DNA of 64,000 bases, from the NCBI GenBank assembly GCA_000092065.1, contig CP000600.1. One strand, written 5' to 3'. The notes below the pieces were generated by a model, which had not been told where the DNA came from, made no database searches, and was given only the letters and a program-made list of their open reading frames with translations. This stretch comes from Ostreococcus lucimarinus. Its lineage: Eukaryota. Shown here in pieces: positions 22,892-25,227 of the stretch. Every line of letters begins with the position of its first letter. Within the stretch, counting starts at the first letter, position 1. A program made the position numbers and the translations under genes.

Positions 22892-23542
22892 TTATACGTC
22901 GACTTTTGCGGGCGCCTGTTGGACGTAGATGACTTGCGGCTGCTGCGGCCGCGTCGCCACGGCGGTGGCGATGAGCTGGTCGCGTCGGTACGCGAAGCAC
23001 CCGCACCGCCCACAGTAGCAGCACGAGACGATGAGCAACGTCAGGCCGACGACGGTACCAATGATGATGCCCGCGATCGCGCCACCGTCTGGTTTACAGC
23101 AGTCGTCACCGCAGCATACGTTTTGGCCGCCCGTGTACATACTGCACCATTTACCGCCTTTTTTGTGGAGTGGTGGGCACCCGTGGGCGCCGTCCCAGCA
23201 TTTGGCTCCATTGGCAACTTCCGTGGCGATTTCTGTTCCACACGAGGTGTAACTGGAAATTGTGTCCGTACACTTGGACGGGCACGATTGGTCGATCGAG
23301 TTGCCATACGGTGGCGGTCCCGCGCTGCACCCGAAACAGTCTGAGCACACACTGACCGTCACGCCGTTGTAGGTCCCGGTGTTGTAACAGAACTCTTCGC
23401 TCGATGCCCAGGGGTTCGCGCTCGCGTAGCCGCTCGAAACAACGCAGTCGGTGTGGGTTGAACACGTGTCGCCCGCGTCCGCGCGCGCGGTGTGCGCGAC
23501 GGCGAGGCCGAAAACGAACGGTACGAGGAGGTTCTTAAACAT
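22892..23542 (-). CDS. cysteine-rich type I membrane protein (signal peptide, Cys-rich ectodomain, single TM, short tail)
   Basis: ATG at 23542. MFKNLLVPFVFGLAVAHTARA signal peptide; ~130-aa ectodomain with more than 20 Cys; TM AIAGIIIGTVVGLTLLIVSCCYC near the C-terminus; Gln-Pro tail. Confidence 0.5.
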   Translation of the reverse strand: MFKNLLVPFVFGLAVAHTARADAGDTCSTHTDCVVSSGYASANPWASSEEFCYNTGTYNGVTVSVCSDCFGCSAGPPPYGNSIDQSCPSKCTDTISSYTSCGTEIATEVANGAKCWDGAHGCPPLHKKGGKWCSMYTGGQNVCCGDDCCKPDGGAIAGIIIGTVVGLTLLIVSCCYCGRCGCFAYRRDQLIATAVATRPQQPQVIYVQQAPAKVDV

Positions 23543-23739
23543 CTTTGGCGTGGGTTTATCTCGCAAAAGGATTTCAGCGAGGCTTGAGGTGCGCCGCAAA
23601 GTGAGGCCCGGAGATCCGGGGATCCTCCGCAGCCCCGCGGGCGTGTGTGTGCCTGGCGTGTGCCCTTCGCGGTCGGTCGGACGAGGGGCCCGTTGGCGCC
23701 CCGCGGGTTTGTGTGCCAGCCCCAGGGTTTAGGGGTTAG

Positions 23740-24420
23740 GATCGGACATATGGAAACTCACTAATTAGCCGCATGACCTCATACATTAAGTTATTTATAT
23801 CTAGTCATCGCGCGAAATGGCGTGGGTAAATTACCGTACAGTAATTTACCCCCGGAACCGCTTGCGACTTGCGACAGATGGTGTATTGTATGCGATTGTA
23901 TTACAATATATTTTTATATATTTGGATATGCTTTAATAGATATTAAATATCATACGACATACGTGAATGATAAAAAGTTGCTTCACGGATGCGTGCCATG
24001 TGAAGGCTGGACCTCCAGTCCGAGGTGGATGACCATGAATCATGAACCGTGAACAGTAGAGTCGCACCTTTTCTCTACACACGATTCGTCTCTCATTCAT
24101 TGTAAGGAGTAGGCAAAGCTTCGCGCCTCATATAGCAGGAGGACATCCAGTCTGCGGGCGGTGACCAGGCTAATGCCTCCTTAGCATGTCGCCTGACTCC
24201 TGGCGCTATGTGTGTTGTCAATTCGTTCAAATCACTAGTACATTTCGGTGTGTCGAACTCATCACGCGTGTCACTTTTTTTTTCCACCAACACGCAGAAG
24301 GCACATACAGGGTTTAGTGGATCTACTCTGTCTGAGACGACTCTGCATTGGAGACCCACATTGAAGAGCTTATCCTCGTTTAATTTCTTGCACACTTTGT
24401 TGAATGCCTCGACCATTTGT
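23740..24420. other. AT-rich compositional island (~40% GC within a ~68% GC background)
   Basis: Direct read: runs such as tatttttatatatttggatatgctttaatagatattaaatatcatacg. Includes the palindrome at 23824-23851 and is flanked at 23706-23727 by a telomere-like motif. It overlaps the 3' half of ORF 24093-24740. Confidence 0.85.
23824..23851. repeat. 28-bp near-perfect palindrome gggtaaattac cgtaca gtaatttaccc (11-bp perfect arms)
   Basis: Arms gggtaaattac and gtaatttaccc are exact reverse complements around a GTAC core; read directly. Confidence 0.9.
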
Positions 24421-24740
24421 GGCGGCGGCCACCTGACGTCCTCGACGCCGGCGCCACAGCATATAGGAAGCCTGGGCCACCCCCCCATGGCCTTCAGTGC
24501 GCCGTTCAAGATATCCACAATCTCGGTCGCCAGCGGTGAGTTTTTCGACCAATCTGAGTCACGGGGACGCGCGGGGGCGGTCGTGGTGCCGTGGTGTACG
24601 TTCCACACGGGGTCTCCCGTCAGCAGGGGACTGTTGAACCATTGGCGCGCGCGATCGCCCTTCCATGAAGTGACGTCACAGCGAAGAACCGCGAGCAGGT
24701 CGGCGTGATAGTACGTTGGGGTGCTCTGCGCACAACCCAT
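24093..24740 (-). CDS. hypothetical protein with N-terminal MGCxxS myristoylation/palmitoylation motif
   Basis: ATG verified at 24740 (MGCAQSTPTYY...). The 215-codon frame stays open through ~330 bp of AT-rich sequence, which is unlikely by chance at 40% GC. No recognisable domain. An opposite-strand ORF 24208-24708 is also open. Confidence 0.4.
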   Translation of the reverse strand: MGCAQSTPTYYHADLLAVLRCDVTSWKGDRARQWFNSPLLTGDPVWNVHHGTTTAPARPRDSDWSKNSPLATEIVDILNGALKAMGGWPRLPICCGAGVEDVRWPPPQMVEAFNKVCKKLNEDKLFNVGLQCRVVSDRVDPLNPVCAFCVLVEKKSDTRDEFDTPKCTSDLNELTTHIAPGVRRHAKEALAWSPPADWMSSCYMRREALPTPYNE

Positions 24741-25227
24741 GGCGCGCGTCGTCGTGACGTGCGATCGAGATCGAGACCCCGGCCCGTTCGCGCGGCGATG
24801 GATCCGGCGGGACGTGATATTTTTACCGTAGGGGTCATGACTCGTCGTTCGGAGTACGCTGTGCTATTTACGCACGATCGATCGATCGACGCGCGTGGTA
24901 ATACTAATACGCGTACGTTAAATACGAGTCACCGCGCGTCGCACGCCTAAAGAAAGACCCGCGCCGAATCCGATTCGACGCGCGCGGCGACGACGCGTCG
25001 CCACGTCAGCGCCGCGCGACGCGTCGCCACACCGCGACGATTCGCGCGTCGCGCGCGCCGTGTCTTCGCGACATAACGCGTCGCGCGTCGAAGAACGTCG
25101 ACACGACGCGTCGATCGACGCGCGGCGCGCGCGGCGCGACGCGACGATCGCGTGCGGAGGCGCGGCGAGCGGATAACGCGACGACGGGGACGCGCGAAAA
25201 AGCGACGCAAAAAGCGACGCGCGAGCG

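Follow-up and report, generated by a model that had tools for sequence, protein, structure and literature searches.

A low-GC gene unit of Ostreococcus lucimarinus encodes a fast-evolving, predicted lipid-anchored protein

Introduction

A Met-Gly-Cys start with a serine at position 6 is the classical two-signal membrane anchor, in which a myristoyl group is combined with an S-acyl group. Few marine eukaryotic phototrophs are as abundant as Ostreococcus and its relatives, whose virus resistance is thought to be shaped by fast-evolving accessory genes. Here we describe a gene with such a start, MGCAQS, at positions 24093-24740 (minus strand) of a 64,000-nucleotide stretch of the Ostreococcus lucimarinus genome (contig CP000600.1 of assembly GCA_000092065.1; hereafter, the window). 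A preliminary description, made from the sequence of the window, had noted a change in G+C content (GC) inside this open reading frame (ORF) and had proposed a chimeric or recently acquired 3′ region. Our comparisons with related loci, which come from metagenome contigs (numbered with the prefix L), suggest that the GC drop probably marks a low-GC gene unit of ~1 kb that is placed differently in related genomes, and not a chimeric junction.

Accessory subunits of palmitoyltransferases are best known in animals and fungi. Two such subunits are GCP16/GOLGA7, which acts with ZDHHC9, and Erf4, which acts with Erf2 (PMC5364179). The predicted core of the protein described here may resemble these subunits, a likeness that we treat as a lead and not as family membership.

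Results

The gene is real and belongs to an orphan family

The 215-codon frame runs uninterrupted from ATG to stop, and its product is identical at 215/215 residues to XP_001422751.1 (UniRef A4SBC3, 'predicted protein', O. lucimarinus CCE9901); the gene is already annotated in O. lucimarinus, though the protein is uncharacterised. This identity makes the window nuclear DNA of that alga or of a near-identical strain. At 48% GC, ~5% of random codons are stops and 110 open codons have a probability of ~0.004, so the open frame exceeds chance. What settles the matter is homology, with 66 proteins matched at E-values of 1e-148 to 1e-12, most of them over 100% of the length. An MMETSP transcript of one family member holds a complete ORF, and the contig collection contains the identical protein in 697 of its index blocks. 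On this homology evidence the minus-strand frame is a real, intronless gene; the preliminary description had expected it to be coding.

The same description had raised the ORF at 24208-24708 on the opposite strand as the one that might be expressed. This ORF is present, with 166 codons and a stop-free stretch of 190. Its frame is broken in most relatives, however, with a longest open stretch of 48-190 codons (median, 103) in 36 family genes, and its product has neither homologues nor a Pfam match; all homology was found in the minus-strand frame, and conservation tracks the codon phase of that strand. By these comparisons it is a shadow ORF and not a gene, and there is practically no chance that it is the expressed gene or that the region is non-coding with long ORFs arisen by chance. 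Dual coding with the antisense ORF was also considered as a source of the codon conservation described below and was ruled out by the unpreserved antisense frame in the 36 genes.

A word-indexed search returned 66 homologous clusters, and in most of these the alignment covered 100% of the query, with 36-58% identity; when distant members were added to the profile, 124 clusters were reached, and an exhaustive hidden Markov model search of 1.84 billion representative proteins found only 38 members. Apart from the window's own cluster, the family came from marine metagenomes and one MMETSP transcriptome: no functional or organism name was attached to any other listed family cluster or to the eight clusters looked up, and none of the other listed clusters had a UniRef, nr or named-genome source. 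Pfam gave no match for the window protein (E up to 1) or for 33 members (E up to 10), a sequence profile search of PDB gave only NDUFB10 at E ~0.1, which we judged to be noise, Foldseek against PDB gave nothing useful, and a literature search by protein accession found no matching paper. As judged from these searches, this is an orphan, uncharacterised and fast-evolving family of at least 124 clusters. Its alignment has a single unbroken frame with conserved blocks at residues 1-16, 61-89, 107-134, 150-160, 190-201 and 212-215, separated by variable stretches.

The GC shift is a family trait

GC falls from 64% in codons 1-108, where GC at third codon positions (GC3) is 0.73, to 48% in codons 109-215, where GC3 is 0.52; in codons 136-195 GC3 drops to 0.43-0.47. 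GC3 in the three neighbouring genes is 0.74-0.81. The strong intragenic shift that had been reported is real, but the value of ~40% GC given for the 3′ half is not (48%); the 36-43% GC stretch, at ~23775-24075, lies almost wholly past the stop codon.

Such a shift would be expected if the gene were a chimera in which a native 5′ half had recently been joined to a 3′ half (codons ~100-215) taken up from foreign, AT-rich DNA. The homologues, however, are collinear with the window protein over 100% of its length in one frame, and both halves are retained in distant relatives. The low-GC 3′ half also contains most of the conserved blocks, namely four of the six (NKVCKKxNxxKLFxxGLQCR, VLVEKK, LAWSPPxDWM and PYNE), which contradicts a recently acquired 3′ end. 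A fall in GC3 from 5′ to 3′ is also seen in most family genes, typically 0.55-0.60 versus 0.43-0.50, and is a family trait that is exaggerated in O. lucimarinus. A chimeric origin, as proposed in the preliminary description, is very improbable. We also considered an alternation of host-like variable and family-like conserved segments as the basis of the shift; GC3 was 0.60 in variable and 0.66 in conserved columns, indicating that the gradient is positional. The foreign-looking composition belongs to the whole gene unit and not to its 3′ half.

The gene unit has unrelated surroundings in related genomes

The unit extends from 24809 to 23871 (~0.94 kb), has 53% GC inside a window of 63% GC, and consists of a ~40-nt 5′ element, the coding sequence (CDS) and an AT-rich 3′ flank. 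When the window was compared with L009 and L010, the 89% match was confined to these positions; homology ended beyond them, and the flanks in the related species were unrelated (the proteins are 83% and 81% identical to the window protein over the best-matching segment). Likewise, L042/L043 and L045 were 96% identical over 843 nt alone, within unrelated flanks, and the L045 unit forms an island of 0.41-0.52 GC in DNA of 0.62-0.74 GC. In one Ostreococcus-like species, two direct UP1 repeats (CTGTTCAYGGTTCATGATTCA) bracket the unit, and these are the exact points at which contigs diverge. Short direct repeats (UP1) also bracket the unit in other family loci, and the window carries the downstream copy only. 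None of the window's flanking genes recurred beside another family member outside the same species.

Composition and codon choice point the same way. Family genes have a GC of 0.45-0.53 and a GC3 of 0.47-0.62, while their flanks range from 0.42 to 0.69 in GC and their neighbouring genes from 0.34 to 0.84 in GC3. The same codon was used at 81% of identical residues, compared with 35% expected from each gene's own usage, and several codons were fixed across 36 distinct genes (AGA in 36/36 and 33/33, CTC in 36/36, CTT in 34/34, TTG in 33/33 and AAA in 36/36). Synonymous divergence (dS) from the window gene was only 0.46-0.92 for all other members. Composition and codons in this family are held regardless of host GC.

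The borders and flanks of the unit make its mobility likely, and we lean somewhat towards a self-contained gene cassette that was relocated by recombination or horizontal transfer. From the borders and composition of this cassette, the 'AT-rich island' of the preliminary description is its 3′ part together with the adjacent element B (see below). Several observations weigh against movement. No terminal inverted repeat, target-site duplication or terminal hairpin was seen by eye at the L043/L045 junctions; no empty site was found; no viral contig in IMG/VR carried the family or its 5′ element; the attribution of other loci to 'different genera' uses flank GC alone; and one clade (L001/L056-L059) is under ordinary purifying selection, with a ratio of non-synonymous to synonymous divergence (dN/dS) of 0.02-0.2.

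The last of these observations, together with the absence of transposon-type ends from the L043/L045 junctions that were read, would also suit an old, vertically inherited gene whose low GC, codons and 5′ element are kept by selection at the nucleotide level (expression control, mRNA features), and whose differing neighbours reflect ordinary synteny loss with no cassette movement. The 5′ element is indeed under strong sequence constraint, and within O. lucimarinus-type populations the gene keeps its place: the same neighbours were found on 8 contigs of 55-546 kb, with the gene between a 148-aa gene and a 216-aa gene and with amino-acid kinase, ZW10-like and triose-phosphate isomerase genes in the wider flanks. 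Vertical inheritance does not readily account for synonymous conservation that is gene-wide and includes six-fold sites such as the AGA and CTC codons above, for a dS to other members of only 0.46-0.92 though flank GC spans 0.42-0.69, or for near-identical cassettes within unrelated flanks; nor was any member seen in another annotated reference proteome among the listed family clusters. We consider this explanation unlikely. If the cassette was relocated, it would now be fixed between housekeeping genes in O. lucimarinus, where the copy is single and internal on a long contig.

The cassette might have been carried by, or captured from, a picoalgal DNA virus or a virus-like integrating element, with a role of the protein in infection or defence. 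A host-independent GC of ~50% and the hotspot variation described below, which is consistent with an arms race, would fit such an origin, as would viral- or mobile-looking neighbours: a Pox_A32-like ATPase (L041), an EcoRI-like adenine methylase (L043) and weak GIY-YIG matches (L026 and L021). The Pfam scores of these neighbours are all below the curated cut-offs, however, and neighbours at other loci are plainly cellular (peptide deformylase, thymidine kinase, RPS18, CemA and a CBS-domain protein). In addition, 2.9 million IMG/VR contigs yielded no confirmed relative of the family profile, the 5′ element or the L041 ATPase. A viral origin appears quite improbable on this balance.

A second 'MGC' ORF abutting the L045 cassette was rejected as a spurious Arg/Pro-rich ORF. 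Separately, near-identical contigs (99.5-99.9%) depart from the window at two breakpoints: L006 upstream of 24860, at the edge of the upstream element A, and L007 and L008 downstream of 22883, just beyond the stop codon of the 216-aa gene. These are structural variants flanking a two-gene block made up of the family gene and the 216-aa gene; the alternative sequence of L008 past 22883 contains another R motif (see below).

The protein is predicted to be lipid-anchored

To evaluate the N-terminus, we collected 126 members with a recognisable N-terminal block, using a search pattern that itself required Met-Gly, and applied the PROSITE myristoylation pattern PS00008, G-{EDRKHPFYW}-x-x-[STAGCN]-{P}, directly after Met1. 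The window protein (MGCAQST) fits the pattern, as do 119/126 members. Gly2, which the search pattern demanded, was present in 126/126 N-termini and is nearly invariant in alignment A1, and Ser6 was present in 123/126. A Met-Gly start is retained even in distant relatives (for example, MGQCFCKP... and MGHCVSKP...). Cysteine at position 3, as in the window protein, was frequent and not universal (87/126; 89/126 when position 4 was included), so ~30% of members lack a cysteine at either position, which weighs against a two-signal anchor throughout the family. The acylation consensus that the preliminary description had read in the MGC start is borne out by this conservation. A second candidate S-acylation site is internal: a cysteine in the loop after the GGWP motif was present in 104/104 members, and even the most distant relatives show little or no change at the two loop cysteines, which are Cys94-Cys95 in the window protein.

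Taken with known N-myristoyltransferase substrates and the two-signal model, the conserved Met-Gly and cysteine signals predict a myristoyl plus S-acyl anchor on the cytosolic face, and the product is very probably a lipid-anchored membrane protein. In the proposed sequence of events, Met1 would be removed and N-myristoyltransferase would acylate Gly2 co-translationally; the weak myristoyl anchor would carry the protein to a membrane, where a DHHC enzyme would then S-acylate Cys3 and probably also the invariant Cys94-Cys95 loop. The expected end state is stable attachment to the cytosolic membrane face.

A possible likeness of the predicted core to GCP16 and Erf4

AlphaFold2 models built from 33 and then 95 sequences had predicted local distance difference test scores of 66 and 72.5 and predicted template modelling scores of 0.69 and 0.72, respectively, with a confident core at residues ~60-155 and 165-205. 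In these models the conserved core at ~60-155 consists of a helix, the Cys loop, a second helix and a β-hairpin, an arrangement that may come closest to GCP16/GOLGA7 and Erf4 (Pfam PF10256). Sequence profiles did not support the likeness: neither the window protein nor the 33 members matched PF10256 in the Pfam searches described above, and hhalign against a GOLGA7 profile gave probabilities of 0.2% and 0.06%, a weak test, as the profile was shallow (12 vertebrate sequences). The only local hhalign alignment placed the ELVDxLNxALKAMGG helix against GCP16 residues 44-69, ending at Cys69. As a best guess at function, we tentatively propose that the protein may serve an S-acyltransferase as a lipid-anchored adaptor or cofactor.

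Rapidly evolving loops and apparent homopolymer length variants

The gene-wide dN/dS had a median of 0.78 and reached 2.1 in close pairs. In another species, the CDS of two alleles was separated by 8 substitutions, each of which changed the amino acid (8 non-synonymous, 0 synonymous). Among 23 near-identical population alleles, variation was almost solely confined to a few multi-state hotspots that were combinatorially shuffled; one site, for example, had five dipeptide states. In the L015 clade the hotspots are at 94-95, 131-139 and 176-183, which by eye lie near window residues 100-105, 136-148 and 160-189. When positioned with the help of the alignments, the hotspots lie in predicted loops, and the loops around the core evolve very fast. 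The alignment also contains mosaic combinations of N- and C-termini (for example, P0012 with P0020 and P0040 with P0050).

Two homopolymers in the coding sequence, A9 and G7, are conserved in the family and show apparent length variants. The A9 run, in the invariant VEK block, is one of just two A/T runs of at least 7 in the 64 kb and is kept in ~20/36 family genes. A8 alleles (L004, L005 and L013) are frameshifted with the downstream frame intact, and in L079, an A9 allele of 99% identity, the frame is unbroken; these variants could reflect phase variation, transcriptional slippage or assembly error. The frameshifts at the G7 run, seen in metagenome contigs, may be assembly errors.

Non-coding elements around the gene

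The positions of all features are listed in Table 1. Within the 5′ element, the block CACGTCAC.ACGA.G.GC.CCATGGGT (26 nt) was invariant in 27/27 distinct loci, far above the conservation of the protein, and the full element occurs once in the window (0 expected). Its family-wide form is (TCTCGA)n followed by TCACGTCACRACGAAGYGCRCC. The 14-nt core (TCACGTCACRACGA) was found in 29/70 loci (~260 kb), only upstream of family start codons, and the window strain has a variant of it. In many loci an AT-rich, TATA-like sequence lies just upstream. No consensus RNA structure and no covariation were found in the 5′ element, which probably combines a core promoter, a short leader and the start context. 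Downstream of the stop codon, the AT-rich flank, which is the core of the former 'AT-rich island', is a probable 3′ untranslated region.

Table 1. Positions of the gene, its parts and the surrounding features in the window
Feature	Position	Strand	Basis or remarks
Protein-coding gene, single exon, 215 aa	24093..24740	-	ORF list, identity, homologues, alignment
Codons 1-6 (MGCAQS): candidate N-myristoylation site (Gly2, Ser6) and adjacent S-acylation cysteine (Cys3)	24723..24740	-	Pattern conservation
Cys94-Cys95, candidate internal S-acylation site, in the loop that connects the end of the GGWP helix to the PPQMVEAF helix	24456..24461	-	Conservation
G7 homopolymer in the Met-Gly-Gly-Trp codons	24480..24486	-	Frameshifts in L011, L012, L066
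A9 homopolymer (GTG GAA AAA AAA AGT = VEKKS) in the invariant VEK block	24275..24283	-	Family comparison
Conserved 5′ element: (TCTCGA)2, then GCACGTCACGACGACGCGCGCC, then ATG	24741..24780	-	27/27 loci
Upstream element A (..ACTCCGAACGACGAGTCATGACC.., AAAAATATC at 24814-24827)	24804..24860	-	89-96% matches in L020, L021, L028, L040
AT-rich 3′ flank, 39.6% GC, UP1-like repeat at 24033-24056	23871..24092	-	Alignment with L009, L010
Conserved non-coding element B	23660..23870	-	75-92% matches in L005, L013, L015, L025, L028-L031, L036
Neighbouring gene; its 216-aa product is Cys-rich and carries a signal peptide and, at the C-terminus, a membrane segment	22892..23542	-	Translation; called genes in L072-L078
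166-codon ORF, shadow of the real gene	24208..24708	+	No Pfam match; frame not kept open in the family

Element B, of ~190 nt, recurs beside different genes in other loci, and its 3′ part also trails the stop codons of family genes and of other genes. It contains a palindrome at 23824-23851 with perfect 11-bp arms (GGGTAAATTAC/GTAATTTACCC), TATAAATA at 23790-23799, a conserved leader at 23742-23770 and two further motifs, namely the telomere-like CCTAACCCCTAAACCCTGGGG (23720-23740) and the R motif (23690-23707), which is GC-rich and reads CCCGCGGGGCGCCAACGG. Immediately outside the element, 23632-23653 holds another R-like copy. The telomere-like CCCTAAACCC occurs once in the window (0 expected). 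Judged by sequence, the element resembles either a small RNA gene or a promoter module that runs directly into a 3′ module with no coding sequence in between.

The CCCTAAACCC stretch could serve as a template for TTTAGGG repeats, and telomerase RNA was considered for element B. Plant-type telomerase RNA genes have a type-3 promoter of RNA polymerase III, with an upstream sequence element (USE) whose consensus in O. lucimarinus is CCCRTAA (Fajkus et al. 2021, PMC8287931). Element B shares with such genes a TATA-like box ~55 nt upstream of CCCTAAACCC and a T-run downstream, and a template of at least 1.5 telomere repeats is present (CCCCTAAACCCT). The USE was absent from 23560-23900, however, no Rfam match was found, folding was no better than that of shuffled sequences (z-score, -0.49), and the template is lost in L028, L030 and L015; this identification is not supported and was dropped. 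Across 23300-25100, Rfam gave only sub-threshold noise, in the CG-rich 24916-25093. The CG-rich segment 24970-25093, which has sub-threshold Rfam matches, contains several imperfect inverted repeats (30-nt arms, 70-81% complementary) that probably reflect (CGN)n-like genome composition.

Other copies and neighbouring genes

Tandem head-to-tail copies, or the start of a second copy right behind the first, were seen in L016 (96-1567), L039 (1-135) and L044 (1362-1389), and some genomes seem from these contigs to hold arrays of family genes and not a single copy. In L065 (1-120), ~5 true telomere repeats (CCCTAAA) directly abut a family gene that breaks off near residue 90, a copy that seems to lie at a healed chromosome end. 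Short telomere-like motifs were also present near family genes in L006, L015, L018, L022, L042 and L064.

The viral- or mobile-looking neighbour genes, at L041 2000-4318, L043 3337-3807, L026 3727-4296 and L021 1530-2027, lie within low-GC stretches of several kb; a probable cytosine methyltransferase was recognised among such neighbours by eye only. A relationship between the 216-aa neighbour in the window and a Cys-rich protein in L043 was considered and dropped, as the similarity was not significant. A second small gene, at L015 250-1040 (minus strand) and L079 1230-1305, encodes a 174-aa protein (MYDSVE...) with a membrane segment and Pro-Glu repeats. It shares the upstream modules of the family (palindrome, leader and UP2) and the 3′ module made up of the telomere-like and R motifs.

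Discussion

The MGCAQS gene is a concrete and very abundant example of an accessory, fast-evolving picoalgal gene. Four traits of its family are unusual: a conserved lipid-anchor signal, codon conservation combined with rapid amino-acid change, host-independent composition and a lineage-specific genomic address. A cassette that truly moves would represent a new, small vehicle for gene flow among picoalgae, and if the likeness to GCP16/Erf4 is real, the protein would be a divergent green-lineage relative of palmitoyltransferase accessory subunits. If neither is true, the gene would encode an ordinary lineage-specific membrane protein; the flag of a 'chimeric gene' could be dropped in that case too.

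With dual-acylated proteins such as Lck, Fyn, G-alpha-i, plant CBL1 and some CPKs, the family shares the Met-Gly-Cys start and Ser6. In contrast to them, it has no kinase, GTPase or EF-hand domain, and there is no homology past the first six residues. The comparison with GCP16 reaches into the predicted core, as the S-acylated cysteines of GCP16 lie in a loop after the first long helix, and all 104 family members examined likewise have a cysteine in the loop after the first long predicted helix. The family differs from GCP16/Erf4 in its N-terminal myristoylation signal, its long variable insertions and its conserved C-terminal extension (LAWSPPxDWM...PYNE). Moreover, GCP16 and Erf4 are conserved enzyme cofactors, whereas the family is hypervariable and patchily distributed, which weighs against the proposed function, since a protein of this kind fits poorly as a housekeeping enzyme cofactor.

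The most far-reaching scenario, which we regard as speculative and improbable, would join these elements: a promoter-carrying cassette of ~1 kb, spreading among marine picoalgae possibly via viruses or virus-like elements, would encode a GCP16-like, lipid-anchored protein whose loops are under diversifying selection and whose expression frame is switched at A9 and G7, forming a contingency locus that probably takes part in an alga-virus arms race. Known contingency families, such as the subtelomeric var/VSG genes and the phase-variable surface genes of bacteria, differ from this system in that the O. lucimarinus gene is single-copy and internal and its product is predicted to be lipid-anchored on the cytosolic face and not to be a surface antigen. 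The likeness to these families lies in the conserved scaffold with mosaic variable blocks, the excess of non-synonymous change, the conserved upstream element and the tandem copies in L016, L039 and L044, and extends to the telomere-capped, truncated copy in L065 and the frame-switching homopolymer length variants, which are candidates for phase variation.

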